Shown here in pieces: positions 29,362-51,502 of a stretch of DNA of 64,000 nt; position 1 is the stretch's first letter, and each line of letters opens with the position of its first letter. The notes below the pieces were generated by a model. The model ran no database searches. It saw nothing but the letters and a program-made list of their open reading frames with translations, and was not told the DNA's origin. Where the stretch lies: NCBI RefSeq assembly GCF_024502345.1, contig NZ_JALDNN010000001.1, one strand, 5' to 3'. The position numbers were made by a program, and so were the translations under genes. This stretch comes from Escherichia coli. GTDB lineage: Bacteria > Pseudomonadota > Gammaproteobacteria > Enterobacterales > Enterobacteriaceae.

Positions 29362-29477
29362 ATCTATACCTACCAGAGAGTTCATAAATATCTCGCCAAT
29401 ATCATTTTTGAATCTATGGAGAGAAAAGTACCCTTGTCGAATCTTTAAAGAAAGCTCATTTACGAATCATTTTTTAT

Positions 29478-29499
29478 TTTTGCGAGGCGTTTTCCAGAT
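29478..29499. repeat. Copy A of a conserved ~22-bp element (tttttgcgaggcgttttccaga), about 115 bp upstream of yiiF
   Basis: Identical 22-mer also at 29927-29948; near-identical at 31151-31171. Copies A and B additionally share gttgcagtt 13 bp further on. Confidence 0.85.
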
Positions 29500-29604
29500 A
29501 TGATGTAACAGTTGCAGTTATTATAAGTTCAAGTAAAACAACCTTGTATTAATACCAGAATAAGGGCATCTGGTTTTTTATATTCAAGAATAAAAAAATT
29601 TTTG

Positions 29605-29823
29605 TCATTCCTTATGATCCTTACACTGATCATAAACACCTACTGTCTCACCCCTTTGCCTGCCTCTCTTTGCTTTACGCACCGGAAATTGCTGCCGCTC
29701 CAGATATTGCTCAACCGCTTCGCGTAAAATTGCAGATCGTGAAACCTTACGCCAGCCCCGAAGCTTGTTCAGCCGTTTAATTGCCTCTTCTGATAAATGA
29801 AGAAAAACCGTATTCATCGCCAT
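29605..29823 (-). CDS. yiiE: Ribbon-helix-helix (CopG-like) small DNA-binding protein, paralog of YiiF, 72 aa
   Basis: ORF 29605..29850; recognised protein starts MAMNTVFLHLSEEAIKRLNKLRGWRKVSRSAILREAVEQYL. Confidence 0.75.
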   Translation of the reverse strand: MAMNTVFLHLSEEAIKRLNKLRGWRKVSRSAILREAVEQYLERQQFPVRKAKRGRQRGETVGVYDQCKDHKE

Positions 29824-29926
29824 TACCACCACCTTACATATATTACTCATTAATGTATGTGCGAAAATTACGCCGGAAAATCATTTAAAAAAAGCGGATT
29901 TTTGCATGTCGTTTTGTTTTTGCGAG

Positions 29927-29948
29927 GCGTTTTCCAGAAATAATAAGA
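29927..29948. repeat. Copy B of the conserved 22-bp element, about 105 bp upstream of yiiE
   Basis: Exact 22/22 match to copy A. Confidence 0.85.
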
Positions 29949-30252
29949 GCGTTGCAGTTGTTTCATTTATTACTCAAAAATGGTTTAGTTATCGCCCAGG
30001 ATGAGTTATGGATGCTATGAATATATTATATTCAGGGATGTTTATTTTTTGATTGGATCTTTATTTGCATAATCTGAATGGTGTACCCGAAAAATGTCAG
30101 CATCCTAACAGCACCCGGATTTAAGGTGAAATTAATCATCCATCACAGACCGGTCAGTACTGCCACCAACCGGTCTTTACTTGTTCATCGTTATAATTTT
30201 GTTGGTAACAGTTCGGGAAACAAGGAATTCCTTCCGGAACCCCCCGGTATCA

Positions 30253-30342
30253 TCCGATAGCATTGACGTCAATCATCAGCGCGACGATGAGTTTTTTTAA
30301 TCGCATCATAGGGTGGCGACGTTCAGCACGATTACGGGTCAT
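30253..30342 (-). CDS. Candidate small ORF, 29 aa (MTRNRAERRHPMMRLKKLIVALMIDVNAIG), unknown function
   Basis: ATG preceded by AGGAG at 8-nt spacing (plus-strand ctcct 30351-30355); the ORF itself is below the ORF-track length cut-off. No homology recognised; may be spurious. Confidence 0.2.
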
Positions 30343-30427
30343 AGCAAAACTCCTGGGCAGGCGACCACTATGCCGCTTTCACAGGAGTTCTGAATGCTAG
30401 TGCTTTCTGTATGGCATAACCATGCCT

Positions 30428-30718
30428 CTAACGGTTAAGTGCTTGCAGCACATGTTGCGGATCATTGGCAATCGCTCGCAGCAAAGCCTTTGCAGGCCCG
30501 GTCGGTGAACGTCGCCCCTGCTCCCAGTTACGCAACGTGTCTACGCTTACAGAAATAAGATCGGCAAATTTAGATTGTGACAACCCTGAAGCGCGGCGTA
30601 TTTCTTTGATTTTCATAGCATCAACTTCAAAAGTCCGCGAAGGCTGTCGCGTTCCTTCAATAATTTCATTCATCTGGGCCATGCTGTGAGTCAACCGCTC
30701 AAAAAGTGCCTTATCCAT
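30428..30718 (-). CDS. XRE-family helix-turn-helix antitoxin (HigA/NadS-like), 96 aa
   Basis: ORF MDKALFERLTHSMAQMNEIIEGTRQPSRTFEVDAMKIKEIRRASGLSQSKFADLISVSVDTLRNWEQGRR...; HTH motif; ATG immediately abuts the stop of the upstream toxin-like ORF. Confidence 0.75.
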   Translation of the reverse strand: MDKALFERLTHSMAQMNEIIEGTRQPSRTFEVDAMKIKEIRRASGLSQSKFADLISVSVDTLRNWEQGRRSPTGPAKALLRAIANDPQHVLQALNR

Positions 30719-31030
30719 TTACCACCTCGTATTTAACAACCGGAGCATTGCTTTTCCCAGGGGAGACAGATCATCTTTAATACCCTTACGATAAATAAGC
30801 AGTAATCTGATCTCATAATGTTTAACCTGATGAAAGTAAATAACCCTGACACCAGCACGTTTCCCCTTTCCTCCTGACACCCATCGAACCTTTCTTAACC
30901 CACCAGTTTCAGGTATTACCTCACCATAGTCAGGATTCAAGGCTAGGAAAAACTGAAAACGACGGAATTCATCGTCGTTCAGCAGTTTTTGAACATCTTC
31001 AGTAAAAATTTCCGTTTCGATGAAGGGTAT
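30719..31030 (-). CDS. RelE/HigB-superfamily toxin-like gene (DUF1044 addiction-module killer type) lacking a canonical start codon; possibly inactive
   Basis: Frame open from stop at 31073-31075 down to 30719: ...IVIPFIETEIFTEDVQKLLNDDEFRRFQFFLALNPDYGEVIPETGGLRKVRWVSGGKGKRAGVRVIYFHQVKHYEIRLLLIYRKGIKDDLSPLGKAMLRLLNTRW. No ATG/GTG upstream of the TTG at 30940; the position where a start is expected from the family's typical N-terminus (M-x-FIET) is ATA (31028-31030). Confidence 0.55.
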   Translation of the reverse strand: MPFIETEIFTEDVQKLLNDDEFRRFQFFLALNPDYGEVIPETGGLRKVRWVSGGKGKRAGVRVIYFHQVKHYEIRLLLIYRKGIKDDLSPLGKAMLRLLNTRW

Positions 31031-31150
31031 AACTATACGCCATTGGCTTAGAGTAACAATCCTTTTTGTACGTCATTGACGTACCCTTGAAACCACTAGC
31101 TTACTGATAGTGCTCCAGCAAAACCCCGTCTCTGCCGGGTTTGTCTTTAC

Positions 31151-31171
31151 TTTTGCGAGGCGCTTTCCAGA
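31151..31171. repeat. Copy C of the conserved element (ttttgcgaggcgctttccaga), between the toxin-like gene and the esterase gene
   Basis: 20/21 match to copies A/B; lies about 80-120 bp upstream of the toxin-like reading frame on the minus strand and 12 bp upstream of a GTG on the plus strand. Confidence 0.8.
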
Positions 31172-31246
31172 TTTTCCACATCCGTGAATTTCCCTGTATC
31201 CATCCAGCAGAAACGAGTGTATAAAACTGTACATTCATACAGCAAG

Positions 31247-32167
31247 ATGAGTTCTACTATGGCACTGGAAAAAGGAATTGCAGAGTTAGTCGAAGAGTTT
31301 ATCGCTGCGGGTCGCCCCTCATCGCGTCAACAAAGTATTGCACAGCGCAGGGAGGGCTATATCGCCAGCGCTGTCCTTGCGGGTGAGACAGAAACGCGGG
31401 TAGATATTCAGACTATCGAACTTGAAGGGATGACCTTACGAATAGTGTCACCGCTGAATGCCCCGACATTACTCCCGACGATAATTTATTACTACGGTGG
31501 CTGTTTTGTTAGCGGCGGGTTCGCAACTCACGACAACCAGCTGCGCCAGTTAGCCTATTACGGGCAATGTCGTGTTATTGCCGTCCAGTATCGGCTGGCA
31601 CCGGAACATACTTTCCCCGCCGCCCATGATGATGCGCAACGAGGTGCAGAATTAGTCTTGCAACACGCCGAACGACTTGGCGTTGATAAACAGCGGATAA
31701 CTCTTGCCGGTGACAGTGCGGGCGGACATCTGGCGCTGGTAACTGCTTTGCGATTAAAGCGTGCTGGCGAGTGGCAACCTGCACAACTCATATTAATTTA
31801 TCCCATGCTTGATGCGACTGCGCATTTCGAAAGCTATATCCGCAATGGTCACGATTACATCATCACACGCGATACTCTACTGAGCGGCTTTGAGATGTAC
31901 CTACCAGATATTGATCGCAAGCATCCTGAAGCCAGTCCTCTATGGCGAGATGATTTTAATGGCTTGCCGCCTGTACATATCATTACCGCTGAATACGACC
32001 CACTTTGCGATGAAGGTGAAGCGTTGTATCACCGCATGACCGAGCAAGGAGTGCAATGTACCTGCCAACGCTACCCTGGCGTTATCCACGGATTTTTTCA
32101 GTTAGGTGGTATCAGCGAGGCCGCGCGATCGGCACTACGGGATGTTGCCTGGAGAGCGGGAAGGTAA
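31247..32167 (+). CDS. Alpha/beta-hydrolase, family IV (HSL/Aes-like) esterase, about 307 aa
   Basis: ORF 31184..32167; oxyanion-hole region YYYGGCF, nucleophile elbow GDSAGG, DPLCDEG and C-terminal HGFF catalytic-His motif. Start chosen at first ATG (31247); GTG at 31184 also possible. Confidence 0.75.
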   Translation: MSSTMALEKGIAELVEEFIAAGRPSSRQQSIAQRREGYIASAVLAGETETRVDIQTIELEGMTLRIVSPLNAPTLLPTIIYYYGGCFVSGGFATHDNQLRQLAYYGQCRVIAVQYRLAPEHTFPAAHDDAQRGAELVLQHAERLGVDKQRITLAGDSAGGHLALVTALRLKRAGEWQPAQLILIYPMLDATAHFESYIRNGHDYIITRDTLLSGFEMYLPDIDRKHPEASPLWRDDFNGLPPVHIITAEYDPLCDEGEALYHRMTEQGVQCTCQRYPGVIHGFFQLGGISEAARSALRDVAWRAGR

Positions 32168-32182
32168 CTTCGGACCTGGGCC

Positions 32183-32215
32183 CTGAAAAGGTTTTCAGAT
32201 TGAAAACCTTTTCAG
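32183..32215. terminator. Perfect 14-bp-stem hairpin between convergent esterase gene and yiiD
   Basis: ctgaaaaggttttc-agatt-gaaaaccttttcag, exact inverted repeat, U-rich on both strands. Confidence 0.6.
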
Positions 32216-32230
32216 TCAAGTAAAACGCCC

Positions 32231-33220
32231 CTACTCTTCTTCGTTCCCGCCCTCTTCATACGGGCCAAATGGCTTCGCGGGCAGAACGATATACGTGCCT
32301 TCAAACACTGCACCCGGCGTCTCGTCGCCAAAGATTTCAACTTGCATCTGCACCCGTGCTTTTCGTCCGCGCGCCAGACGGTCGAGATCGCCGCTTAAGG
32401 CACCAAGGTCGGCTACCGCATGGGGTTTACCGCTAATCGGTTTGCTGTAGCGGATATGCGCATCCGCCAGAATAATCGTTCCGCCGAGGTGGCGTTCACG
32501 CAGCATCAGCCAGATAAGCCCCCAACCGGTGAGCGTCGCCAGCGAGAATAAACTCCCGGCAAACAGCGTATGGTGCGGATTCTGATTGCCGGTTTCCGGC
32601 ATGGTGGTGATAAATTTTTGCCCGGTATATTGTTGAATACGCACGCCCATTTTTTCACTAAGCGGGATATGTTCGTACCACGCCTGTTGCAGCTGCGCGC
32701 ACCAGTCGCCGCGATGCAAAATATCATCCAGAGTGGCGACGGGCTTAATCATCAAAAAATGGCGAATCGGCGTGGTGGTTGGCGTGGTGATTTCTCCCTG
32801 ATTAACAAACCCCAGCTTGGCGAAAAACTCCACCGCGTCTTCACGGGCGCTACAGGTCACGCGCTTAACGCCTTCCTGACGCGCCACCGACTCTAGGGTC
32901 ATCGCCATCAGCGTTCCTAACCCTTTGTCCTGCACGTCCGGGTGAACGGCCATAAAGCGAATGGACGCTTCATTGTCGGCATTAATATACAGTCGGCCTA
33001 CCGCCACCAGATTACCCTGCTCGTCGACGACCATCTGGTGATGCGCCATCGCATCCCACGCGTCGCGTTCCGAACCTTTTGGTTGATGCAGGGGCTTACG
33101 CAACATTTCCCAGCGAAACTGATAGTAACGCTCTAATTCTTCTTCTGTTTGTGGAACCCGAAGGTGATACATAGCGATACTCTCTCTTGTTTCCCGTGAC
33201 AACCCTGGAAGCTGGCTCAT
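32231..33220 (-). CDS. yiiD: GNAT acetyltransferase / thioesterase fusion protein YiiD (FabY), 329 aa
   Basis: [49 protein letters not shown]... Confidence 0.9.
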
Positions 33221-33654
33221 ACCTGCAACCAGAATGTCACGGGGCCATCATTGACCAGCGATACCTGCATATCCGCAGCGAAGCGTCCTGTTTGCGTGTT
33301 CATCTCTTGCTGACGGCAGCGTTCGACGAAATAGTCATATAACGCCTCTGCGCGATCCGGTGATGCACCTTTGGAGAAACTTGGGCGCATCCCCCGTTCG
33401 GTATCTGCGGCGAGGGTAAACTGGGAAACCACCAGCACACTGCCGCCCGCCTGTTGCACGTTGAGATTCATCTTGCCTTCGGCATCGCTAAAGATGCGGT
33501 AGCCGAGCACACGCTCGCACAGACGGTTTGCTTTCTGTTCGTCGTCATCCTTTTCGACACCCAATAACACCAAAAGTCCCGCGCCAATTTCGCCCGTCAC
33601 TTCTCCCTCCACGGTGACGCTGGCACGGGTTACGCGTTGAATTAATGCAATCAT
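33217..33654 (-). CDS. dtd: D-aminoacyl-tRNA deacylase, 145 aa
   Basis: [48 protein letters not shown]...; 4-bp overlap with yiiD and yihY. Confidence 0.95.
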
Positions 33655-34523
33655 GGTTCGTCGTCTTCTTCTTGTTCAGCTGCTTGTTTTAGTTTGCGGT
33701 ATTCCCCGAGAGTGACAGTAATTTCCGCGCCAAGCAAGACGATACACCATGTCCAGTAGACCCAAACAAAGAGAATGGGGATCACCGCCAGCACACCGTA
33801 AATGAGCTGATATGAGGGGAACATGGTGATATAAAGCGCGAAACCTTTCTTTCCTGCTTCGAACAGGAGTGCAGCAACAAACGCGCCGACAATCGCGTCG
33901 CGGTTAGGTACGCGGATGGTTGGAACAATGCTGTACAGCAACCAGAAGGAGATCCACGACAACAGCAGCGGAAAAATACGCAGCACGTTGTCGATGACAG
34001 TATTGAGATCGCTCGCCCAGCGCAGGGAGAGCAAATAGGAACTGATCGCCAGACTGGCCCCTGCCAGCAGCGGCCCCAGCGTTAAAATCATCCAGTACAC
34101 GGCGAACGAGTAAATTTTTGGTCGAGCTCGTTTACTGCGCCAGATGGTATTCAACGCGCTATCGATGGAGTACATCAACAATAACGCGGTGACGATCAGC
34201 CCGCACGCCCCAACGGCGGTCATCTTGTTGGAATTGGCAACAAATTGTTCGATATACCGCTGAATAACATCGCCAGTAGCAGGCAGAAAGTTGGCAAAAA
34301 TAAAGTGACGCAACTGAATGCTGACGTCGGAAAACATGGGAAAAGCGGCGAAAAGCGCAAAAACAACGGCAACCAGCGGCACTAATGAGAGCAACGACAC
34401 ATAGGCAAGGTTACCTGCCAGGGTTGTCATGTTGTCCTCATCAATGCGTTGCCAGAGTAGTTTCAGCCAGGCCCATAGCGGACGGGTACGGTGCCTGGCT
34501 TTGTCCTGAATGGTTTTTAGCAT
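33651..34523 (-). CDS. yihY: Inner-membrane protein YihY (formerly called rbn), 290 aa
   Basis: [53 protein letters not shown]..., polytopic. Confidence 0.9.
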
Positions 34524-35116
34524 AACACCTTCGCGAAATAGTCCGGGATGGTGGTTTTATCTTTCACCAGAATACTGGTAATGCCCAGCTGATTAGCTCC
34601 TTCTATATTATCGGCGTTATCGTCGAAAAAGGCCGTATCGCTGGGTGAAAAACCTTCCGCCTGCAAAACATGCTGGTAAATTCGAGCTTCAGGTTTGCGC
34701 ATCCCCAGATCTTGCGACAGATAGATATGGTCAGCAGCATCACGAATTTCCGGGTATTCTTCCGGCCAGAAGGTGGTATGCAGGCGGTTGGTATTGGAAA
34801 GCACCACCACGCGATGCTCCTGCTCACGCAGTTTATGCATGATGGCGATCACTTCCGGGCGCAGCGCAACAAACACCGCCTGCCAGCCGTGAGAGAACTG
34901 CTCGTAGCTTAGCGGTAGAGCCATCTCATGACACAGCGCCTCTGCGAACGCTTCGTCGCTAATTTCCCCGCGCTCATGCTGATGAAACGCCTCCCCCATA
35001 TGAAAACTCTTCTTAAGCGATGCCAGCGGAATACGCGTTAAATCGCTCCAGGCTCCCAGCACACGGTTAAAGTCGATATCGACAATCACATTACCTAAAT
35101 CAAAGATATAGAGCAT
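34517..35116 (-). CDS. yihX: HAD-family alpha-D-glucose-1-phosphate phosphatase, 199 aa
   Basis: ORF 34517..35137; recognised start [19 protein letters not shown] (HAD motif I DxGxV). Confidence 0.85.
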
Positions 35117-35226
35117 TTTTGCCTCCTTTCGCGCCACAAGAAATTAACTGTAGCGGGAAAGGATGGGTTTGGCTATGTGGCAAGGTATGAAGCCAGGTCA
35201 ACGGTCACAAAAATCTACGCGTCTTC

Positions 35227-36000
35227 CTAGGGAAGAATGATTTCAATTTGGCTGTCTTGTAAGCGTGATTTTAGCGCAGCGGGCGGCAGCTCGTCGGTGA
35301 AGAGCGCGGTGACCTGTGCCACGTTACCAATTTCAACCGCCGCCGAAGCATGATACTTAGTGTGATCGGCGACCAGCAGGATATTTCTCGCGTGCGCCAT
35401 CATCGTTTTCACCACGTTAGCTTCGTTTACATCAAACTCCATCAACGCGCCATCGCTCTCGATTGCGCCTACGCTTGTTACCAGATAATCAGCACGAAAA
35501 TCGGCCACAAAGGACGCCGCTGAAGGGCCAATGATCCCGCTATTATGAGAGCGCAACGTACCGCCGGGCACCATCACTTCAAAGCGCGGGTTGTGGTAAA
35601 GAATATGCGCCACACGCAGGCTGTTGGTGATTATCCGCAAATGATTATGGTTAAGTAACGCCCGGGCGACATGCTCAACGGTCGTACCAATGGTGATAAA
35701 TATTGTTGAACCATCAGGAATATAGTCTGCCACCGCTTCGGCAATCGCTTTTTTTTCCTCGGTTTGCGAAACCTCACGCTGCTCGAACGCCGTATTAACG
35801 ACGCTGGAAGCCCGACCCGCGCCACCGTGATGGCGCGTAATCAGGCCTTGCTCGCTTAATTTACGAATATCCCGGCGCACCGTCTGCGTGGAGACATCCA
35901 GCAGATTTGCCAGCTCATCAATATTCATATACCCACGCTCGGCGATCAGCATGAGGAGTTGGTCGTGCCGCGGGTTACCGGTTAGTTCGGTAAGGCTCAT
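35227..36000 (-). CDS. yihW: DeoR-family repressor of the sulfoquinovose cluster (CsqR/YihW), about 257 aa
   Basis: ORF 35227..36024; start placed at internal Met MSLTELTGNPRHDQLLMLIAERGYMNIDELANLL by recollection of the K-12 protein. Confidence 0.8.
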   Translation of the reverse strand: MSLTELTGNPRHDQLLMLIAERGYMNIDELANLLDVSTQTVRRDIRKLSEQGLITRHHGGAGRASSVVNTAFEQREVSQTEEKKAIAEAVADYIPDGSTIFITIGTTVEHVARALLNHNHLRIITNSLRVAHILYHNPRFEVMVPGGTLRSHNSGIIGPSAASFVADFRADYLVTSVGAIESDGALMEFDVNEANVVKTMMAHARNILLVADHTKYHASAAVEIGNVAQVTALFTDELPPAALKSRLQDSQIEIILP

Positions 36001-36033
36001 GAAAATTCCTCGAAAAACCATCACCCTGGCATT

Positions 36034-36930
36034 TTATACAAAAAGTGACAAAAAAGATCGGGTTTGATCACAGTCAGGGATCCCGGCTCGTCCACCGGGA
36101 CGCGTGCATTTCAACGCCGCTACACCGCTGGCGAAGCGGACTGACTCCGCTAAATCCCCACCTGTTGCCAGCGCCACCGCCAATGCGCCGTGAAAAACAT
36201 CACCCGCACCTGTGGTATCTACCACATCAACTTTGAAGGCCGGTTGATGTTGACGCCCGCCATTTTCCAGCCAGTCACAGCCTGCGCTGCCCTGGGTCAC
36301 ATAGACATGACCATTTGTGAGCGTTTGTGCCTGTTTTAGCGCACTGGCCATCTCTTTCACACCCGTTAAGCGCGCCAGACCCGGTTCTGAAAAGGCCGCA
36401 TGATCGCTTAATGCCACCAGCTCGCTGATATCCTGCGGCGTAATATCACCGTCCAGAACGGTCATCACGCCCGCCTGCCGGGCCAGAGTGAAGGCTTTTT
36501 TAGCGCCGTCGTGCCAGCGTACATCTGCCAGCACAACATCCCACTGAGAGAAATCAATTTCCTCCAACCACTCTGCGTCAGGCAGCAGGTCCGGGCTGGG
36601 GTAGTTAATGATTATCCGCTCGCCTGTGGCATCCACCATGATGGCGGATTGCGATGATTTCGCCTGGTTATACCGTTTGGTGTAACGGGTGTTAACGCCC
36701 CAGGATTCCAGCTCTGCCAGCAGGCTGTTGCCCGTGTCGTCATCACCTACGCGACCCATAAAATCAACCTGCGCCCCCAGCCTTGCCGCCGCAACCGCTG
36801 CCGTCGCCGCTGGCCCGCCACCAACTTCCGTATAATTTCTCGCCACGTATTTACCGCTCTCCGTCGGTAACCCTTCCACGTAATAGATGCGATCCATCAC
36901 GGTTATACCTACACAAGCAACACGAATCAT
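36034..36930 (-). CDS. yihV: Sulfofructose kinase (PfkB family), 298 aa
   Basis: ORF 36034..36936; MIRVACVGITVMDRIYYVEGLPTESGKYVA..., ribokinase-like GAGD motif. Confidence 0.85.
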   Translation of the reverse strand: MIRVACVGITVMDRIYYVEGLPTESGKYVARNYTEVGGGPAATAAVAAARLGAQVDFMGRVGDDDTGNSLLAELESWGVNTRYTKRYNQAKSSQSAIMVDATGERIIINYPSPDLLPDAEWLEEIDFSQWDVVLADVRWHDGAKKAFTLARQAGVMTVLDGDITPQDISELVALSDHAAFSEPGLARLTGVKEMASALKQAQTLTNGHVYVTQGSAGCDWLENGGRQHQPAFKVDVVDTTGAGDVFHGALAVALATGGDLAESVRFASGVAALKCTRPGGRAGIPDCDQTRSFLSLFV

Positions 36931-37097
36931 GGTCATTCCTTAAACATTTTGGGATGCGTTCATTTTAATTTCACCAATTGTTTAAAAAGTGACGGCTGTC
37001 AATTTTTTGACTATAAATTACAAATACGATCAAAAACAGACAATCAAAGCGTGTCATAAATGACAAAAAGTGACATCGCTGTATTCAGGAGAAGGTT

Positions 37098-37994
37098 ATG
37101 GCAGCAATCGCGTTTATCGGTTTAGGACAAATGGGTTCGCCAATGGCGAGCAATTTATTGCAGCAAGGGCACCAACTTCGCGTCTTTGATGTGAATGCCG
37201 AGGCTGTGCGGCATCTGGTAGACAAAGGCGCGACTCCCGCCGCCAACCCGGCGCAGGCCGCTAAAGATGCCGAATTTATCATTACCATGTTGCCGAATGG
37301 CGATCTGGTGCGCAGCGTGTTGTTCGGTGAGAACGGCGTTTGCGAAAGCTTATCTACCGATGCGCTGGTCATTGATATGTCGACCATCCATCCGCTGCAA
37401 ACCGATAAATTGATTGCCGATATGCAAGCCAAAGGCTTCAGCATGATGGATGTTCCGGTAGGCCGTACTTCTGCAAATGCCATTACCGGTACTCTGTTAC
37501 TGCTGGCTGGCGGCACCGCTGAACAAGTTGAACGTGCCACGCCGATCCTGATGGCGATGGGCAGTGAGTTGATCAACGCTGGCGGTCCGGGCATGGGGAT
37601 CCGCGTTAAGCTCATCAACAACTATATGAGCATCGCACTCAATGCGCTTTCGGCAGAAGCTGCCGTTTTGTGCGAAGCCCTGAATCTTCCCTTCGATGTT
37701 GCCGTCAAAGTGATGAGCGGTACCGCCGCCGGTAAAGGCCACTTCACCACTTCCTGGCCAAACAAAGTCCTCAGCGGAGATCTTTCTCCCGCCTTCATGA
37801 TCGATCTTGCCCATAAGGATCTTGGCATCGCCCTTGATGTCGCCAACCAGCTGCATGTGCCAATGCCGCTGGGGGCCGCCTCACGGGAGGTTTATAGCCA
37901 GGCGCGCGCAGCGGGTCGCGGTCGCCAGGACTGGTCCGCCATTCTGGAACAGGTCCGTGTCAGTGCCGGGATGACTGCCAAAGTAAAAATGTAA
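37098..37994 (+). CDS. yihU: 3-sulfolactaldehyde reductase, 298 aa
   Basis: [40 protein letters not shown]..., NAD-binding GLGxMG. Confidence 0.9.
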
Positions 37995-38017
37995 CGACTG
38001 GATAAAGGAATAAATGA

Positions 38018-38896
38018 ATGAATAAGTACACCATCAACGACATTACGCGCGCATCGGGCGGTTTTGCCATGCTGGCGGTCGATCAGCGCGAAGCCATGCG
38101 CATGATGTTTGCCGCGGCTGGGGCACCCGCTCCGGTAGCCGATAGCGTTTTAACTGATTTCAAAGTTAACGCGGCGAAGACCCTCTCGCCTTATGCCTCG
38201 GCGATTCTGGTAGATCAACAATTCTGTTACCGCCAGGTGGTTGAGCAAAACGCGATTGCCAAAAGTTGCGCCATGATTGTCGCCGCCGATGAGTTCATTC
38301 CTGGCAACGGTATTCCGGTAGATAGCGTGGTCATTGACCGCAAAATCAATCCGCTACAGATCAAACAAGACGGTGGCAAAGCCTTAAAACTGCTGGTGCT
38401 GTGGCGTAGTGATGAAGATGCGCAGCAACGCCTGGATATGGTGAAAGAGTTTAACGAACTGTGCCACTCACACGGCCTGGTAAGCATTATTGAGCCAGTC
38501 GTCCGCCCACCACGTCGTGGCGATAAATTCGATCGCGAACAAGCGATCATCGATGCCGCCAAAGAGCTGGGCGACAGTGGCGCTGACCTCTACAAAGTTG
38601 AAATGCCGCTTTACGGTAAAGGTCCGCAACAAGAGCTTCTCAGTGCTTCACAACGTCTGAATAACCATATCAATATGCCGTGGGTGATCCTCTCTTCCGG
38701 TGTCGACGAAAAACTGTTCCCGCGTGCCGTACGCGTGGCAATGACAGCGGGTGCATCGGGCTTCCTGGCTGGTCGTGCCGTCTGGGCATCGGTCGTCGGT
38801 TTACCAGACAACGAGTTGATGCTGCGTGACGTTTGTGCACCGAAATTACAACAACTGGGCGATATCGTCGACGAAATGATGGCTAAACGCCGTTAA
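38018..38896 (+). CDS. yihT: Sulfofructose-phosphate aldolase, 292 aa
   Basis: [34 protein letters not shown]... Confidence 0.9.
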
Positions 38897-38911
38897 GATG
38901 GGGATACAAAA

Positions 38912-40153
38912 ATGAAATGGTTTAACACTTTAAGTCACAACCGTTGGCTGGAACAGGAAACCGATCGCATCTTTGATTTTGGTAAAAATTCCGTAGTACC
39001 GACCGGATTTGGCTGGTTAGGCAATAAAGGGCAAATCAAAGAAGAGATGGGCACCCATCTGTGGATCACAGCTCGTATGTTGCACGTTTATTCCGTTGCT
39101 GCGGCGATGGGTCGACCTGGCGCTTACTCGTTGGTTGATCACGGTATTAAAGCCATGAACGGCGCACTGCGCGATAAAAAATATGGCGGCTGGTATGCCT
39201 GTGTGAATGACGAGGGCGTGGTGGATGCCTCCAAACAGGGCTATCAACATTTCTTTGCTCTGCTGGGTGCTGCCAGCGCCGTCACTACCGGTCATCCGGA
39301 AGCGCGCAAGCTGCTCGATTACACCATTGAAATTATCGAGAAATACTTCTGGAGCGAAGAAGAGCAGATGTGCCTGGAGTCCTGGGACGAAGCCTTCAGC
39401 AAAACCGAAGAGTACCGCGGCGGCAATGCCAATATGCACGCAGTGGAAGCTTTCTTAATTGTTTATGACGTAACGCATGACAAAAAATGGCTGGATCGCG
39501 CGATTCGCGTGGCTTCCGTGATTATCCACGACGTCGCAAGAAATAATCATTATCGCGTTAACGAACACTTCGATACCCAGTGGAATCCGCTGCCGGATTA
39601 CAACAAAGATAACCCGGCGCACCGCTTCCGCGCGTTCGGAGGTACACCAGGCCACTGGATCGAATGGGGCCGTTTAATGCTGCACATCCACGCGGCCCTG
39701 GAAGCCCGTTGCGAACAACCGCCAGCATGGTTGCTAGAAGATGCCAAAGGTCTGTTTAACGCCACCGTGCGTGATGCCTGGGCACCCGATGGTGCGGACG
39801 GGATTGTTTATACCGTTGACTGGGAAGGAAAACCGGTGGTCCGCGAACGTGTGCGTTGGCCTATCGTCGAAGCGATAGGTACGGCCTACGCGCTCTACAC
39901 CGTCACCGGCGATCGCCAGTATGAAACCTGGTATCAGACATGGTGGGACTACTGCATTAAGTACCTGATGGACTATGAAAATGGTTCCTGGTGGCAGGAG
40001 CTGGATGCGGACAATAAAGTCACCACGAAAGTCTGGGACGGCAAACAGGATATTTATCACCTGCTGCATTGCCTGGTGATCCCGCGTATCCCGTTAGCGC
40101 CAGGCCTGGCTCCGGCAGTTGCGGCGGGTCTGCTGGATATTAACGCGAAATAA
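38912..40153 (+). CDS. yihS: Sulfoquinovose isomerase (AGE-family epimerase/isomerase), 413 aa
   Basis: [43 protein letters not shown]... Confidence 0.9.
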
Positions 40154-40333
40154 CTGACTAAAAAAAAACGACATATCAGGCTGCACGCCGGGTATGTCGT
40201 TATTCAATAAAGGTACCTCGTATGCAAATCACCAACATGCATTGCAGTGGACAGACCGTTTCACTTGCCGCGGGGGATTATCACGCGACCATTGTGACCG
40301 TCGGTGCAGGTCTGGCTGAATTAACCTTTCAGG

Positions 40334-41554
40334 TGTAGATTCAATTGGTCAACGCAACAGTTATGTGAAAACATGGGGTTGCGGAGGTTTTTTGAATGAG
40401 ACGAACATTTACAGCAGAGGAAAAAGCCTCTGTTTTTGAACTATGGAAGAACGGAACAGGCTTCAGTGAAATAGCGAATATCCTGGGTTCAAAACCCGGA
40501 ACGATCTTCACTATGTTAAGGGATACTGGCGGCATAAAACCCCATGAGCGTAAGCGGGCTGTAGCTCACCTGACACTGTCTGAGCGCGAGGAGATACGAG
40601 CTGGTTTGTCAGCCAAAATGAGCATTCGTGCGATAGCTACTGCGCTGAATCGCAGTCCTTCGACGATCTCACGTGAAGTTCAGCGTAATCGGGGCAGACG
40701 CTATTACAAAGCTGTTGATGCTAATAACCGAGCCAACAGAATGGCGAAAAGGCCAAAACCGTGCTTACTGGATCAAAATTTACCATTGCGAAAGCTTGTT
40801 CTGGAAAAGCTGGAGATGAAATGGTCTCCAGAGCAAATATCAGGATGGTTAAGGCGAACAAAACCACGTCAAAAAACGCTGCGAATATCACCTGAGACAA
40901 TTTATAAAACGCTGTACTTTCGTAGCCGTGAAGCGCTACACCACCTGAATATACAGCATCTGCGACGGTCGCATAGCCTTCGCCATGGCAGGCGTCATAC
41001 CCGCAAAGGCGAAAGAGGTACGATTAACATAGTGAACGGAACACCAATTCACGAACGTTCCCGAAATATCGATAACAGACGCTCTCTGGGGCATTGGGAG
41101 GGCGATTTAGTCTCAGGTACAAAAAACTCTCATATAGCCACACTTGTAGACCGAAAATCACGTTATACGATCATCCTTAGACTCAGGGGCAAAGATTCTG
41201 TCTCAGTAAATCAGGCTCTTACCGACAAATTCCTGAGTTTACCGTCAGAACTCAGAAAATCACTGACATGGGACAGAGGAATGGAACTGGCCAGACATCT
41301 AGAATTTACTGTCAGCACCGGCGTTAAAGTTTACTTCTGCGATCCTCAGAGTCCTTGGCAGCGGGGAACAAATGAGAACACAAATGGGCTAATTCGGCAG
41401 TACTTTCCTAAAAAGACATGTCTTGCCCAATATACTCAACATGAACTAGATCTGGTTGCTGCTCAGCTAAACAACAGACCGAGAAAGACACTGAAGTTCA
41501 AAACACCGAAAGAGATAATTGAAAGGGGTGTTGCATTGACAGATTGAATCTACA
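40334..41554 (+). mobile_element. IS30 insertion sequence, 1221 bp, with 2-bp target-site duplication GG
   Basis: Terminal inverted repeats tgtagattcaattggtcaacgcaacag (left) and gtgttgcattgacagattgaatctaca (right); GG at 40332-40333 and 41555-41556; contains 383-aa transposase ORF. Confidence 0.92.
40396..41547 (+). CDS. insI: IS30 transposase, 383 aa
   Basis: ORF MRRTFTAEEKASVFELWKNGTGFSEIANILGSKPGTIFTMLRDTGGIKPHERKRAV...; DDE motif region HWEGDLV. Confidence 0.9.
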   Translation: MRRTFTAEEKASVFELWKNGTGFSEIANILGSKPGTIFTMLRDTGGIKPHERKRAVAHLTLSEREEIRAGLSAKMSIRAIATALNRSPSTISREVQRNRGRRYYKAVDANNRANRMAKRPKPCLLDQNLPLRKLVLEKLEMKWSPEQISGWLRRTKPRQKTLRISPETIYKTLYFRSREALHHLNIQHLRRSHSLRHGRRHTRKGERGTINIVNGTPIHERSRNIDNRRSLGHWEGDLVSGTKNSHIATLVDRKSRYTIILRLRGKDSVSVNQALTDKFLSLPSELRKSLTWDRGMELARHLEFTVSTGVKVYFCDPQSPWQRGTNENTNGLIRQYFPKKTCLAQYTQHELDLVAAQLNNRPRKTLKFKTPKEIIERGVALTD

Positions 41555-42407
41555 GGGCTGTCATTTAGTTATTCCACATAAACCCGAAGAGATGCCGCTG
41601 GCACATCTGGGCAAAGTCCTTATTCCGTGGCCGAACCGGATCGCCAACGGCTGTTATCGCTATCAGGGGCAGGAATATCAGTTACCCATTAATGAACATG
41701 GTTCAAAAGCCGCTATTCATGGGCTGCTCGCCTGGCGTGACTGGCAAATCAGCGAATTAACCGCCACCAGCGTTACCCTGACAGCTTTTCTGCCACCCAG
41801 TTACGGCTATCCGTTTATGCTGGCTTCGCAGGTTGTTTATTCGCTCAATGCACGCACGGGTCTTTCCGTTGAGATCGCAAGTCAGAATATTGGTACTGTG
41901 ACCGCACCCTATGGTGTGGGTATTCATCCTTATTTAACCTGCAACTTAACATCTGTTGATGAATATCTGTTCCAGCTTCCGGCAAACCAGGTTTATGCCG
42001 TCGATGAGCACGCTAATCCGACAACGCTTCACCACGTTGATGAGCTGGATTTAAATTTCACGCAGGCGAAAAAAATAGCCGCGACAAAAATCGACCACAC
42101 CTTTAAAACCGCTAATGATCTGTGGGAAATAACCATTACCCATCCACAACAGGCGCTTTCGGTAAGCCTTTGTTCCGATCAACCCTGGGTGCAGATTTAT
42201 AGCGGCGAAAAATTACAGCGTCAGGGACTGGCAGTTGAACCTATGAGTTGCCCACCTAACGCCTTTAATTCAGGTCTCGACTTATTATTACTGGAACCAG
42301 GGAAAACGCACCGCCTGTTTTTTAATATTTACGGGCAGCACAATTAATTTTATTAAGAAAAGAACGAGATCATTGTTTAGGGTTGTATTTACACAACAGG
42401 AAATATC

Positions 42408-43283
42408 ATGGACTTTTTTACGTTATTTTCACCGGATGGGGTCATGCTGGAAACAAACGTGGTATGTATCGTTATCGCGTTAATGTTTCTTTATACCTTT
42501 GTGGGGATATGCGCGGGATTTGGCGGTGGTTTAACCACCATGCCGCTCGTCACGTTAATGCTCCCCGTAAAAATGGCAACTCCGCTCTCGGTGATTGTCG
42601 GCACCGCGACCGCCTTGTACGCCACCTGGCTGTCACGTAAAGAAACGGATTGGCGATCGGCAATGGTACTGATTATTTTCTCGTTTCTGGGAATACCCGT
42701 CGGTTTATATGCGCTGTCATATTTACCCGACCATTTTATGAAAGTGGGCTTAGGCGGATTCCTTATCCTGTACTCCTTTTACAGTATGTTTATTCCACGC
42801 CTGCCGATTTATGACCGCAACTGGATCGCCGCACCTATCGGCGCTGTGGCAGGAGCGTTAGGGGCAGCGTTTTCAACCAACGGACCGCCGATGGTTATCT
42901 ACGGTATGCTGCGTAACTTAGGCCCGGCGGCATTTCGTGGCACTCTGAACGCTTTCTTCACCGCAAACAACATCGCGGTGATCGGCGGGCTGGCGACCAG
43001 CGGAATTTTGACTGTTTCTATCTTTAAACTGGTGCTGTTTTGTATTCCCACCATGATCCTCGGTTCACTGGTTGGACAATATGTGCATAAACGCATTTCA
43101 GTCAAAGTGTTCCGTGTGATGGTCTTTTTGTTGCTGATTGCCTCCGGTTCTATGTTGATAAAAGGCGCGCTGGGAATTCCCGCTGCTGCCGCGCTTCTGC
43201 CTCCTTTTACCTTGTTAGTTATACTGCAACTGGCATTTGGTAAAAAAGTGGCGGCAATCCGCCGGGCTGAAGAAAGTAAATAA
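42408..43283 (+). CDS. TauE/SafE-family (DUF81) membrane permease, putative sulfite/sulfonate exporter, 291 aa
   Basis: ORF MDFFTLFSPDGVMLETNVVCIVIALMFLYTFVGICAGFGGGLTTMPLV...; multiple TM segments with the glycine-rich motif (AGFGGG..P) typical of TauE/SafE proteins; SD aggaaa before ATG. Confidence 0.7.
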   Translation: MDFFTLFSPDGVMLETNVVCIVIALMFLYTFVGICAGFGGGLTTMPLVTLMLPVKMATPLSVIVGTATALYATWLSRKETDWRSAMVLIIFSFLGIPVGLYALSYLPDHFMKVGLGGFLILYSFYSMFIPRLPIYDRNWIAAPIGAVAGALGAAFSTNGPPMVIYGMLRNLGPAAFRGTLNAFFTANNIAVIGGLATSGILTVSIFKLVLFCIPTMILGSLVGQYVHKRISVKVFRVMVFLLLIASGSMLIKGALGIPAAAALLPPFTLLVILQLAFGKKVAAIRRAEESK

Positions 43284-43391
43284 TCACTTATGCGGGTTTT
43301 AATTTATACCAGCACCACATTCTTTAATTAATGAAACCTGTAACAACAGGATGGCATGAAATATTAGCTTTATACTCTATGGAGATTATTT

Positions 43392-45424
43392 ATGGATACG
43401 CCACGCCCACAATTACCAGATTTTCAGTTTCATCAGAATAACGACAGTTTTACCCTACATTTTCAACAGCGTCTTATTTTAACCCATAGCAAAGATAATC
43501 CTTGTTTATGGATTGGTTCAGGTATTGCGGATATCGATATGTTCCGCGGCAATTTCAGCATTAAAGATAAACTACAGGAGAAAATTGCGCTTACCGACGC
43601 CATCGTCAGCCAGTCGCCGGATGGTTGGTTAATCCATTTCAGCCGTGGTTCTGACATTAGCGCCACGCTGAATATCTCTGCCGACGATCAGGGCCGTTTA
43701 TTGCTGGAACTACAAAACGACAACCTTAACCACAACCGTATCTGGCTGCGCCTTGCCGCTCAACCAGAGGACCATATCTACGGCTGCGGCGAACAGTTTT
43801 CCTACTTCGATCTGCGTGGCAAACCGTTCCCGCTATGGACCAGTGAACAAGGCGTTGGTCGCAATAAACAAACCTATGTCACCTGGCAGGCCGACTGCAA
43901 AGAAAATGCGGGCGGCGACTATTACTGGACTTTCTTCCCACAGCCTACGTTTGTCAGCACGCAGAAGTATTACTGCCATGTTGATAACAGTTGCTATATG
44001 AACTTCGACTTTAGTGCCCCGGAATACCATGAACTGGCGCTGTGGGAAGACAAAGCAACGCTGCGTTTTGAATGTGCTGACACATACATCTCCCTGCTGG
44101 AAAAATTAACCGCCCTGCTGGGACGCCAGCCAGAACTGCCCGACTGGATTTATGACGGAGTAACGCTCGGCATTCAGGGCGGGACGGAAGTGTGCCAGAA
44201 GAAACTGGACACCATGCGTAACGCGGGCGTGAAGGTCAACGGCATCTGGGCGCAGGACTGGTCCGGTATTCGTATGACCTCTTTTGGCAAACGCGTGATG
44301 TGGAACTGGAAGTGGAACAGCGAAAACTACCCGCAACTGGATTCGCGTATCAAGCAGTGGAACAAAGAGGGCGTGCAGTTCCTTGCCTATATCAACCCGT
44401 ATGTTGCCAGTGATAAAGATCTCTGCGAAGAGGCGGCAAAGCGCGGTTATCTGGCAAAAGATGTCGCCGGTGGCGACTATCTGGTGGAGTTTGGCGAGTT
44501 CTACGGCGGCGTTGTCGATCTCACCAATCCGGAAGCCTACGCCTGGTTCAAGGAAGTTATCAAAAAGAACATGATTGAACTCGGCTGCGGCGGCTGGATG
44601 GCTGACTTCGGCGAGTATCTGCCCACCGACACGTACCTGCATAACGGCATCAGCGCGGAAATTATGCATAACGCCTGGCCCGCGCTGTGGGCGAAATGTA
44701 ACTACGAAGCCTTGAAGAAACGGGCAAGCTCGGCGAGATCCTCTTCTTTATGCGCGCCGGTTCTACCGGTAGCCAGAAATACTCCACCATGATGTGGGCG
44801 GGTGACCAGAACGTGGACTGGAGTCTGGACGATGGCCTGGCGTCGGTTGTCCCGGCGGCGCTATCTCTGGCAATGACCGGACATGGCCTGCATCACAGCG
44901 ACATTGGCGGTTATACCACCCTGTTTGAGATGAAGCGCAGCAAAGAGCTGCTGCGCTGGTGCGATTTCAGCGCCTTCACGCCGATGATGCGCACCCACGA
45001 AGGTAACCGTCCTGGCGACAACTGGCAGTTTGACGGCGACGCGGAAACCATCGCCCATTTCGCCCGTATGACCACCGTCTTCACCACCCTGAAACCTTAC
45101 CTGAAAGAGGCCGTCGCGCTGAATGCGAAGTCCGGCCTGCCGGTTATGCGCCCGCTGTTCCTGCATTACGAAGACGACGCGCAGACCTATTCCCTGAAAT
45201 ATCAGTACCTGTTAGGTCGCGACATTCTGATTGCTCCGGTACACGAAGAAGGTCGCAGCGACTGGACGCTCTATCTGCCAGAGGATAACTGGGTCCACGC
45301 CTGGACCGGAGAAACCTTCCACGGTGGAGAAATAACTGTTGAAGCGCCCATCGGCAAGCCGCCGGTCTTTTATCGCGCCGACAGCGAATGGGCTGCACTG
45401 TTCGCCTCGTTAAAAAACATCTAA
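43392..45424 (+). pseudogene. yihQ: GH31 sulfoquinovosidase yihQ carrying a 1-bp frameshift near 44714
   Basis: ORF 43392..44792 (466 aa) and out-of-frame ORF 44750..45424 (224 aa) together cover one ~678-aa GH31 protein; reading cttgaagaaacg as cttgGaagaaacg restores a single frame (...NYEALEETGKLGEILFFMRAGSTGSQ...). Confidence 0.75.
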
Positions 45425-45469
45425 TCATGCCCGCCCGTGGGGAAACTCACGGGCAAATGGAGAATAACG

Positions 45470-46855: not shown

Positions 46856-46894
46856 TAATAAACGACGCCCTGCGGGGCGTTATAAGGAGTGATT

Positions 46895-48298: not shown

Positions 48299-48364
48299 AT
48301 GTCAATAGCCGCTATTTCCATCCTGGTGGGTGGCGGCCTCCCTACGTTTAAAAATGGACTTATT

Positions 48365-49057
48365 ATGAAAAATATTAATGCAATAATTTTATTATCTTCT
48401 CTGACCTCTGCCTCAGTATTCGCTGGCGCATACGTCGAAAACAGGGAGGCATATAATCTCGCCTCCGATCAGGGCGAGGTTATGCTACGTGTGGGTTATA
48501 ACTTCGATATGGGCGCGGGTATTATGTTAACCAATACCTACACCTTTCAGCGAGAAGATGAACTAAAACATGGATATAACGAAATCGAAGGTTGGTATCC
48601 GTTATTTAAACCAACCGATAAATTAACCATCCAGCCCGGTGGCTTAATTAATGATAAGAGTATCGGTTCGGGTGGTGCAGTGTATCTGGACGTCAACTAT
48701 AAATTTGTACCATGGTTTAATCTGACAGTACGAAATCGCTATAACCATAATAACTATAGTTCAACAGATTTGAGCGGGGAACTGGATAATAATGACACCT
48801 ATGAAATTGGTACCTACTGGAATTTTAAAATCACCGATAAGTTCTCCTATACATTTGAGCCACATTATTTTATACGCGTAAATGACTTTAATAGCAGCAA
48901 TGGAAAAGATCATCACTGGGAAATCACTAACACCTTCCGTTATCGCATTAATGAACACTGGCTGCCTTATTTCGAATTACGCTGGTTAGATCGTAATGTC
49001 GAACCGTACCACCGCGAGCAAAACCAGATTCGTATCGGGACGAAGTATTTCTTCTGA
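48365..49057 (+). CDS. ompL: Outer-membrane porin OmpL, 230 aa
   Basis: Internal Met MKNINAIILLSSLTSASVFAGAY... of ORF 48299..49057; ends ...IRIGTKYFF. Confidence 0.85.
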   Translation: MKNINAIILLSSLTSASVFAGAYVENREAYNLASDQGEVMLRVGYNFDMGAGIMLTNTYTFQREDELKHGYNEIEGWYPLFKPTDKLTIQPGGLINDKSIGSGGAVYLDVNYKFVPWFNLTVRNRYNHNNYSSTDLSGELDNNDTYEIGTYWNFKITDKFSYTFEPHYFIRVNDFNSSNGKDHHWEITNTFRYRINEHWLPYFELRWLDRNVEPYHREQNQIRIGTKYFF

Positions 49058-49061
49058 TGTG

Positions 49062-49145
<84 letters not shown>

Positions 49146-49147
49146 AA

Positions 49148-50413: not shown

Positions 50414-50514
50414 AACATCCCCTAAGCGATTTTTAAAATCACTGTTTTAAAGGCAATAAGATACCGACCATTCATATAGAATGGTTTTATTAACTGCGTA
50501 TGAGTTAAAACTTA

Positions 50515-51495: not shown

Positions 51496-51502
51496 AAAAC
51501 AC

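Follow-up and report, generated by a model that had tools for sequence, protein, structure and literature searches.

The yihX-yihY-dtd-fabY operon of Escherichia coli: candidate translational coupling at two short overlaps and a likely separate start for fabY

The window, the whole stretch of 64,000 nucleotides that was analysed, is E. coli chromosome, with 99.3% identity to strain R1. The minus strand carries four co-directional genes, annotated in E. coli R1 and K-12 as yihX, yihY, dtd and fabY (synonyms yiiD and madA); by the present analysis their spacings are −7, −4 and +44 nt (Table 1). The row of four minus-strand genes described in the first-pass annotation is confirmed, and so are the gene identities; the family assignments lie above curated cut-offs. 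YihX matches the NF006991 equivalog (HAD-IA) with 399 bits (cut-off 295) over residues 1–199 from ATG 35116. YihY, a member of the BrkB family, matches NF002457 over its full length with 477 bits (cut-off 307). Dtd scores 256.5 bits against TIGR00256 (cut-off 101.5) over residues 1–145, and 197 bits against PF02580. FabY joins PF00583 (residues 31–138) and PF09500 (residues 174–313) in one polypeptide, and its C-terminal domain matches 1T82 (2.8e-30). The interval 33217–35137, previously given to all four genes, holds yihX, yihY and dtd only; fabY sits at 32231–33172. An Rfam scan of 31000–37200 gave zero matches.

Table 1. Features of the yihX-yihY-dtd-fabY locus, in the order of transcription
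Feature	Coordinates	Strand	Basis
Promoter-like block upstream of yihX	35143..35177	-	Conserved in 35 Enterobacteriaceae loci
Predicted yihX Shine-Dalgarno (SD), AAGGAGG	35122..35128	-	Anti-SD duplex −11.6 kcal/mol
yihX, alpha-D-glucose-1-phosphate phosphatase (HAD superfamily), 199 aa	34517..35116	-	Same start annotated in R1 and K-12
yihX/yihY 7-nt overlap, ATGCTAA	34517..34523	-	yihX stop and yihY start
yihY	33651..34523	-	NF002457 and PF03631 matches
Synonymous-site constraint block, end of yihY and dtd codons 1–16	33605..33680	-	8-codon windows, permutation
yihY/dtd 4-nt overlap, ATGA, probable termination-reinitiation site	33651..33654	-	Sequence, spacing conservation
dtd, D-aminoacyl-tRNA deacylase, 145 aa	33217..33654	-	TIGR00256, PF02580
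Predicted hairpin around dtd stop and ATG 33220	33193..33246	-	5′ arm in last dtd codons, 3′ arm in spacer
Predicted non-coding dtd-fabY spacer, 44 nt (first 16 fabY codons in K-12 annotation)	33173..33216	-	Codon diversity
Putative fabY ribosome-binding motif, AAGAGAGAG	33180..33188	-	Anti-SD duplex −5.1 kcal/mol
fabY (yiiD/madA), GNAT and malonyl-ACP decarboxylase hot-dog, 313 aa	32231..33172	-	Conserved start; PF00583, PF09500
Perfect hairpin, 15-bp stem, 3-nt loop; candidate transcript 3′ end in this strain	32183..32215	-	Perfect pairing; no U-tract

The operon is already known and catalogued. It is given as a single four-gene unit, yihXY-dtd-yiiD, on the basis of RegulonDB (PMC4421995), and PMC12083536 likewise handles it as an operon with yihX at its head. 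The genes, their order and their strand in the K-12 RegulonDB/EcoCyc unit are identical to those in the window; at the protein level identity is 100% for YihY, Dtd and FabY and 99% for YihX. The two strains differ 3′ of fabY, where the window strain has a gene for an alpha/beta-hydrolase and the perfect hairpin of Table 1, neither of which occurs in K-12; the K-12 sequence diverges directly after the fabY stop codon. The operon as such matters little as a finding: it is catalogued, no gene spacing in E. coli is commoner than a short overlap, and every product except YihY has been characterised individually. Of 2,987 co-directional gene pairs in E. coli, 707 (24%) have a spacing between −8 and +6 nt, and −4 is the most frequent value (PMC10666635); two consecutive short overlaps in an operon are thus unremarkable.

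Candidate signals for transcription and translation lie at the 5′ end of the operon. The start of yihX had been set at 35137, a GTG that opens the longest reading frame, 21 nt too far upstream of ATG 35116. The anti-SD duplex for that GTG is +0.9 kcal/mol, as against the value in Table 1 for the ATG, and AAGGAG before yihX is kept in 35 loci; judged from the sequence, yihX is initiated at this strong SD. In the 110-nt csqR-yihX spacer lie a predicted −35 element TAGCCA (35175–35170) and, after a 17-nt spacer, a predicted −10 element TACAGT (35152–35147) inside GCTACAGTTAAT, with a predicted transcription start at about 35140. The block, caTAGtCAAa...ccTTTcCCGCTACAGTTA, is near-invariant in 35 Enterobacteriaceae loci irrespective of the upstream gene, and a terminator often stands before it. 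Only 8 of 12 positions agree with the sigma-70 consensus, and the consensus scan passed the block over. A literature search for a sigma-S connection of the promoter gave nothing relevant. Transcription would start from this promoter, and read-through from csqR may also enter the operon.

The transcript would then run through all four genes and probably end at the hairpin just past fabY. This hairpin lies 15 nt beyond the fabY stop, between convergent genes, and it lacks a U-tract, which sets it apart from canonical intrinsic terminators. Scanning the gene junctions returned no terminator-like site.

Spacings considered predictive of translational coupling run from about −8 to +10 nt (PMC10666635), a range that accommodates yihX/yihY and yihY/dtd and excludes dtd/fabY. 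The overlap formerly proposed for every junction holds for the first two, at 7 and 4 nt, and fails for the third, where the PGAP and comparative start leaves a 44-nt gap. Reinitiation in native E. coli pairs is nearly lost at a spacing of +38 nt (PMC10666635); that between dtd and fabY is +44 nt.

Among core Enterobacteriaceae, 25 loci have yihX and yihY at −7 and 9 loci have them at −4; in other families the two genes lie +3 to +174 nt apart. Coupling from yihX to yihY at the −7 overlap can reasonably be proposed from the sequence. Most of the translation of yihY, whose SD is weak, would most likely come from ribosomes that finish yihX and then reinitiate.

For the yihY/dtd junction, coupling is a particularly reasonable reading. 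A spacing of −4 occurs in 56 of 78 Enterobacterales loci and, outside that order, in three unrelated contexts. In E. coli the anti-SD duplex of dtd reaches just −1.9 kcal/mol, and folding predicts less structure here than in shuffled sequence. Two 8-codon stretches at this junction, with values of 0.103 and 0.125 (P = 0.0005 and 0.0015 by permutation), are the lowest of the four-gene block, whose mean is 0.47. RNA structure was considered as the source of this synonymous constraint at the 5′ end of dtd; covariation was absent and the consensus weak. Given the near-absent SD, the unstructured RNA and the strongest synonymous constraint at the junction, we infer coupling from yihY to dtd at the −4 ATGA, and dtd, essentially SD-less and with an AU-rich start, would most likely be translated largely by reinitiation after yihY. 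Among the adjacencies of the four genes, yihY-dtd is the only one with signs of selection.

The two overlaps resemble the termination-reinitiation (TeRe) systems with −4, −1 and −8 spacings, such as hyfHI, astDB and menDH of E. coli (Huber et al. 2019, 2023). The yihY/dtd ATGA is similar to theirs; the 7-nt overlap of yihX and yihY puts the two genes in the same relative frame as yihY/dtd, and both SDs are weak or absent. The dtd/fabY junction differs, as its spacing is outside the coupled range. TeRe overlaps are also enriched 4.5-fold for complex subunits, whereas the products of yihX, yihY and dtd are not known as a complex.

The overlaps might instead be neutral by-products of compaction and stop-codon loss, each gene being initiated independently and the gene order being a historical accident. 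Of all spacings, −4 evolves most readily (PMC12548453), the products of 69.6% of closely spaced pairs in E. coli are not complex subunits (PMC10666635), and one of five native E. coli −4 pairs that were tested, bioBF, was uncoupled, the other four being strictly coupled (PMC6728339). The yihX/yihY overlap is limited to core Enterobacteriaceae, which also suits a neutral origin, and so does the invariable dtd start ATGAT (Met-Ile), which has TGA built in. Such an origin fits less well with a dtd that is almost SD-less in E. coli, and with the stronger dtd SDs of lineages in which yihY and dtd are separated (median −6.1 kcal/mol, as against −4.3 in overlapped lineages; P = 5e-4, without correction for phylogeny). 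The peak of synonymous constraint at yihY/dtd, together with the retention of the pair, mostly at −4, despite changing flanks, argues against it further. We regard neutral overlap as unlikely.

The start of fabY decides the third junction. The K-12 model begins at ATG 33220 and gives 329 residues, with a 4-nt overlap with dtd, and NCBI PGAP begins at ATG 33172 and gives 313 residues. Across 67 Enterobacterales loci the N-terminus MYHLRVP, whose start is ATG 33172, is universally conserved, and the region upstream of it is hypervariable. A purine-rich motif of the GAGAG type stands about 8–9 nt before the conserved ATG in 67 of 67 loci, as GAGAGA in nearly all. Diversity by codon position over the 48-nt extension of the K-12 model is 0.20/0.23/0.24, without periodicity, as against 0.045/0.025/0.36 in fabY proper; dtd too shows strong codon periodicity. 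The spacer varies from 14 to 150 nt across loci, and in many genera it is interrupted by in-frame stops or offers no start codon; loci of Cedecea, Buttiauxella, Erwinia, Yersinia, Hafnia, Budvicia and Plesiomonas have a 48-nt stretch that contains stops or lacks a start.

The conserved MYHLRVP start, the invariant motif, the lack of codon periodicity and the upstream stops together argue for a non-coding spacer of 44 nt, and comparative analysis places the fabY start at ATG 33172. It was reported that the GNAT domain occupies residues 19–162 of the 329-residue model (PMC8666670), and a domain that begins only at residue 19 supports the same start. The K-12 model thus begins 48 nt too far upstream by the present comparative evidence. 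It is very probably an over-extension to the longest reading frame, with 16 spurious N-terminal residues in UniProt P0ADQ2, and these residues are probably either not translated or not under selection. The N-terminus of P0ADQ2 matters for expression or N-terminal tagging, for instance in pET28a constructs on residues 1–329. With regard to the MadA and MadB malonyl-ACP decarboxylases (Whaley et al. 2021, PMC8666670), FabY of the window is the two-domain MadA, GNAT plus YiiD_C hot-dog; the protein is the same, and the annotated N-terminus alone is in question. Translation of fabY would proceed from ATG 33172 through its own GAGAGA motif and without overlap. The coupling of dtd to fabY claimed earlier is not supported, as the conserved start lies 44 nt past the dtd stop and carries its own invariant ribosome-binding motif.

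The centroid fold of a 131-nt segment in E. coli consists of the dtd-stop hairpin alone, at −32.4 kcal/mol. A smaller consensus hairpin at the dtd stop was obtained from 24 Enterobacteriaceae, in which 91.7% of cells pair, against 19–44% when the partners are slid, and it has one covarying pair (UA 9, CG 8, UG 5). The conserved hairpin is suggestive only. Inverted repeat I4, in which the spacer shows long-range complementarity to yihY, was judged a coincidence.

Taken as a whole, the locus is the known E. coli yihX-yihY-dtd-fabY operon, probably with its own promoter, reinitiation at yihY and dtd, and a separate fabY start. The four genes might in practice fail to form one transcription unit, if internal promoters supplied most of the expression of fabY, and perhaps of dtd, or if the hairpin that straddles the dtd stop gave partial insulation. 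The separate ribosome-binding motif of fabY would fit such a split, as would the longer spacers before fabY elsewhere: some loci of Yersinia and Serratia have 64–150 nt, and locus L083 has 130 nt. In E. coli, however, the spacer measures only 44 nt, the hairpin has no U-tract, the RegulonDB-derived lists hold the four genes together (PMC4421995), and a consensus scan, itself insensitive, found no promoter-like site on the minus strand inside the genes. A split unit is therefore rather improbable. Serial coupling of four overlapped genes, in which a single ribosome flux sets all four outputs, can draw on the K-12 fabY start that overlaps the dtd stop, and on an ATGA at dtd/fabY that is kept in about 30 core Enterobacteriaceae loci with ATG 33220 in frame and open, but it is highly improbable, because conservation of the FabY N-terminus sets in only 16 codons later, at the ATG with the invariant motif, the one that PGAP also picks, the 48-nt stretch is aperiodic and interrupted or start-less in several genera, and ATG 33220 is within the predicted hairpin. 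A ribosome that reinitiates at ATG 33220 could still yield a minor FabY isoform of 329 residues.

The architecture of the operon had been called conserved. The four-gene unit is listed (PMC4421995) but is not kept uniformly: only yihY-dtd is widely kept, and yihX is found in Enterobacterales only. The yihY-dtd pair is retained in several gammaproteobacterial lineages with flanks that differ each time. A locus search with a 9-sequence YihY alignment returned Enterobacterales and Orbaceae only, and the distant contexts come from 11 single look-ups. The ancestral upstream neighbour is typA/bipA. We propose an old yihY-dtd pair downstream of typA, often followed by fabY; yihX would have entered between these two genes, typA and yihY, in Enterobacterales and have come to overlap yihY in Enterobacteriaceae alone. 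Some 15 kb, from yihL to csqR and including the sulfoquinovose genes, now part typA from the yihX promoter in E. coli, Salmonella and Citrobacter.

In Bacillus subtilis, dtd is arranged with relA. The two arrangements are alike in that dtd, a small housekeeping gene, stands as a later cistron after one with a role in translation or stress. They differ in that the immediate partner of dtd in Gammaproteobacteria is the membrane protein YihY and not a stringent-response enzyme.

The biochemical function of YihY is not known, according to an EcoCyc statement cited in 10.64898/2026.03.31.715626. Its AF2 model consists of helices only (pLDDT 77.5), and its comparison with solved structures gave no informative match. 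A Dtd-like C-terminal domain in long YihY homologues of 400–450 residues was considered and rejected; a weak Rrf2-like similarity was seen instead.

The products of the four genes need not share a pathway. The retention of yihY-dtd across differing flanks, together with the strongest nucleotide-level constraint of the operon, is the ground for a more daring and quite improbable reading, that YihY and Dtd are direct functional partners, YihY, a six-helix membrane protein, exporting or otherwise handling what Dtd releases, whether D-amino acids or another product. FabY, which is frequently adjacent, has a GNAT domain that could conceivably act on the same metabolites and modify them. If this were true, yihY-dtd, perhaps with fabY, would be a module for the detoxification of D-amino acids or of mischarging. 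The widely conserved yihY-dtd pair thus offers a cheap lead to the function of the orphan membrane protein YihY.

The 3.2 kb around yihX–fabY matches 5,425 of 5,426 complete E. coli genomes, with strain R1 at the top (99.3%). ORF listing and reading of the sequence bear out the four consecutive minus-strand genes of the first-pass annotation, and R1 and K-12 annotation names them yihX, yihY, dtd and fabY (yiiD/madA), directly downstream of csqR (yihW). In profile searches all four assignments exceed curated cut-offs: glucose-1-phosphatase equivalog for YihX, BrkB family for YihY, TIGR00256 for Dtd, and GNAT plus YiiD_C domains for FabY. Compared with K-12, YihX shows 99% identity and the other three proteins 100%. 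The block is an ordinary one and already known. The yihXY-dtd-yiiD unit is among the E. coli four-gene operons compiled using RegulonDB transcription units (PMC4421995), and a 2025 operon-dynamics study treated yihX as the operon head (PMC12083536).

The earlier observation is partly confirmed and its interpretation partly supported. Its interval for the operon, 33217–35137, leaves out fabY entirely, and its upper end is the GTG heading the maximal ORF, not the accepted yihX start. That ATG is preceded by AAGGAGG, with an anti-SD duplex of −11.6 kcal/mol versus +0.9 for the GTG, which falls about at the predicted transcript start. Overlap at each junction had been claimed; it holds for yihX/yihY and yihY/dtd, but at dtd/fabY it depends on the gene model. 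The K-12 RefSeq fabY begins at an ATG overlapping the dtd stop, whereas PGAP in R1 begins 48 nt further downstream, leaving a 44-nt gap to dtd.

Features of the yihX–fabY region (window positions)
Feature	Position	Strand	Remark
typA–yihX interval	~35117–52300		yihL to csqR
Predicted −35 of yihX	35175–35170	minus	TAGCCA, in conserved block
Predicted −10 of yihX	35152–35147	minus	TACAGT, 17-nt spacer from −35
−10 region	35143–35154		GCTACAGTTAA
GTG of maximal ORF	35137	minus	
Accepted yihX ATG	35116	minus	
yihX/yihY overlap	34523–34517	minus	7 nt; ...GTG TTA TGC TAA / ATG CTA AAA
yihY/dtd overlap	33654–33651	minus	4 nt; ...CCA TGA / ATG ATT
dtd codons 7–16	~33605–33630	minus	CGCGTAACCCGTGCCAGCGTCACCGTGGAG
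Predicted hairpin at dtd stop	33193–33246		last dtd codons pair with spacer; encloses dtd stop and upstream ATG
Upstream fabY ATG	33220	minus	K-12 model, 329 aa
fabY purine motif	33180–33188	minus	
Conserved fabY ATG	33172	minus	PGAP model, 313 aa
Perfect hairpin	32183–32215		15 bp, 3-nt loop; 15 nt past fabY stop, between convergent fabY and alpha/beta-hydrolase gene
fabY–yiiE interval	~29400–32230		
Alpha/beta-hydrolase gene	31184/31259–32167	plus	

To decide between the two fabY models, the four genes were mapped in 80 yihY-centred loci, one genome per species, from Enterobacteriaceae, Erwiniaceae, Yersiniaceae, Hafniaceae, Budviciaceae, Plesiomonas and Orbaceae. In every locus the fabY frame carries the N-terminal MYHLRVPxTxxEL, whose first residue is Met17 of the K-12 model. 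Upstream of this point the sequence is hypervariable and varies in length; many genera have in-frame stops there, and others offer no start codon where dtd stops. Between 14 and 150 nt separate the dtd stop from the conserved ATG, and (A/G)GAGAGA(G/A) lies 8–9 nt 5′ of this ATG in 67/67 Enterobacterales loci. Nucleotide diversity per codon position was compared in the 23 loci sharing the 44-nt dtd–fabY spacing. It is flat over the 48-nt extension (0.20/0.23/0.24) versus 0.045/0.025/0.36 for the next 48 fabY codons and 0.089/0.051/0.41 for the last 48 dtd codons. Whaley et al. placed the GNAT domain at residues 19–162 of the 329-residue model (PMC8666670). The conserved N-terminus, invariant motif, flat periodicity and domain boundary together argue that 33173–33216 is a non-coding spacer. 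These comparisons point to a fabY start at the conserved ATG with its own ribosome-binding site, and the "overlap" of the fourth gene is then an artefact of choosing the longest ORF. The K-12 RefSeq/UniProt FabY model (YiiD, P0ADQ2; 329 aa) appears 16 codons too long, over 33173–33220; recombinant constructs in the literature span residues 1–329 (PMC8666670). Since about 30 core Enterobacteriaceae loci still have the upstream ATG, reinitiating ribosomes could conceivably make a minor extended isoform. Although the purine motif is a poor partner for the anti-SD (−5.1 kcal/mol), it is better conserved than SDs usually are and may therefore serve some additional function.

The dtd stop codon sits in or near the loop of the predicted hairpin at that site. 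In E. coli this hairpin alone forms the centroid of the folded 131-nt segment (−32.4 kcal/mol). A smaller version is kept in 24 Enterobacteriaceae sampled at genus level, where 91.7% of cells pair versus 19–44% with slid partners. Covariation is seen at one pair, which joins the first base of the Leu codon to the first base past the dtd stop (UA 9, CG 8, UG 5). The data are suggestive of a conserved hairpin, which might act in mRNA stability, in partial insulation of fabY or in masking of the spurious ATG.

Translational coupling had been proposed for the whole block. A spacing of −4 (negative values denoting overlap) is the commonest between co-directional genes (PMC12548453, PMC6728339, PMC10666635), and 24% of such E. 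coli pairs lie within −8 to +6 nt (PMC10666635). Strict coupling was found in 4/5 native −4 pairs tested (PMC6728339); coupling drops steeply with distance, to almost none at +38 nt (PMC10666635). The yihX/yihY overlap is accompanied by a weak SD (−3.9 kcal/mol), and the SD of dtd reaches just −1.9 kcal/mol. Folding predictions give the RNA surrounding the dtd start less structure than 198 of 200 shuffled sequences. Across loci the median dtd SD is −4.3 kcal/mol where yihY and dtd overlap (n=57) versus −6.1 where they are 2–45 nt apart (n=19; Mann–Whitney P = 5e-4, uncorrected for phylogeny). A codon-wise scan of synonymous diversity over the four-gene block in 29 core loci (mean 0.47) found its two lowest windows in the last eight yihY codons (0.125; permutation P = 0.0015) and dtd codons 9–16 (0.103; P = 0.0005). 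These data fit, without proving, reinitiation-dependent translation of dtd. The dtd start is always ATGAT (Met-Ile); with a TGA built into it, the −4 arrangement is easy to evolve.

Synonymous sites of dtd codons 7–16 are almost frozen in core Enterobacteriaceae but not in Erwinia, Serratia, Yersinia and Gilliamella, where they vary; a search for conserved, covarying structure at these codons was negative. One ENA contig carries a 434-residue YihY-Dtd fusion from a frameshift in GAAGAAGACGACGAACC just 5′ of ATGA, and in two NCBI E. coli assemblies YihY is lengthened to 369 and 343 aa by internal tandem duplications. Both forms are probably assembly errors or rare variants.

When the 160 nt preceding yihX were aligned across 35 loci of Enterobacteriaceae, a near-invariant block, caTAGtCAAa-N-ccTTTcCCGCTACAGTTA, stood out, with AAGGAG and then the ATG after it. 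This block occurs regardless of the upstream gene and is often preceded by a clear terminator. Matching only 8/12 consensus positions and missed by a consensus scan, it ranks as a candidate promoter, albeit a well-conserved one. Its −10 region resembles KCTAYRCTTAA, the extended −10 sequence of sigma-S-dependent promoters; no RpoS–yihX link was found in the literature.

A scan found no terminator-like site at any yihX–fabY junction. The perfect hairpin past fabY has no U-tract on either strand. It is missing in K-12, whose sequence departs directly past the fabY stop codon, and among the loci compared the inverted repeat is seen only in the R1 lineage. The fabY–yiiE interval of this strain holds the hydrolase gene and a small pair, a hypothetical and a NadS-family protein; K-12 has instead about 850 bp of unannotated DNA.

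The architecture had also been called conserved. Gene order is indeed kept through most Enterobacterales, but junction spacings differ between lineages. Only core Enterobacteriaceae have a yihX/yihY spacing of −7 or −4, the others ranging from +3 to +174 nt; for yihY/dtd, 56/78 loci are at −4. Edwardsiella is without an adjacent fabY, and Orbaceae have just yihY-dtd. Beyond Enterobacterales, 4/8 informative contigs place dtd immediately after yihY (three at −4, one at +7), each time with different flanks: typA/fabY, unknown/rplN, SPOR gene/phosphatase and ychJ-like/aroA. About 45 Enterobacterales loci have typA (bipA) 133–300 nt ahead of yihX; in Plesiomonas and two other gammaproteobacterial contigs it directly precedes yihY. 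In E. coli, yihL to csqR, a stretch of about 15 kb with the genes for sulfoquinovose catabolism, separates typA from yihX. Comparison with loci L015–L073 of our set indicates that typA is the ancestral upstream neighbour of yihX. In the simplest history, an old yihY-dtd pair would have stood behind typA, often followed by fabY; yihX would have been inserted in the Enterobacterales ancestor and joined to yihY through an overlap in Enterobacteriaceae, and the sulfoquinovose island would have come later. With such a layered history no obvious four-way functional link is to be expected, and only yihY-dtd looks selected as a pair. Among closely spaced pairs, 70% do not encode complex subunits (PMC10666635).

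A 2026 preprint proposed that YihY is remotely similar to CysZ and mitochondrial carriers (10.64898/2026.03.31.715626). A search of the YihY AF2 model (pLDDT 77.5) against solved structures found no informative relative; CysZ was absent from the top 60 matches, and the search therefore gave that proposal no support. The common homologues of 400–450 aa outside Enterobacterales (P0134, P0136 and P0145) have a C-terminal cytoplasmic domain, with weak Rrf2/winged-helix similarity under the Pfam cut-off.

Useful by-products of the analysis are corrected starts for fabY and yihX, together with a conserved candidate promoter; the pairing with dtd also gives a lead on YihY, an orphan membrane protein.
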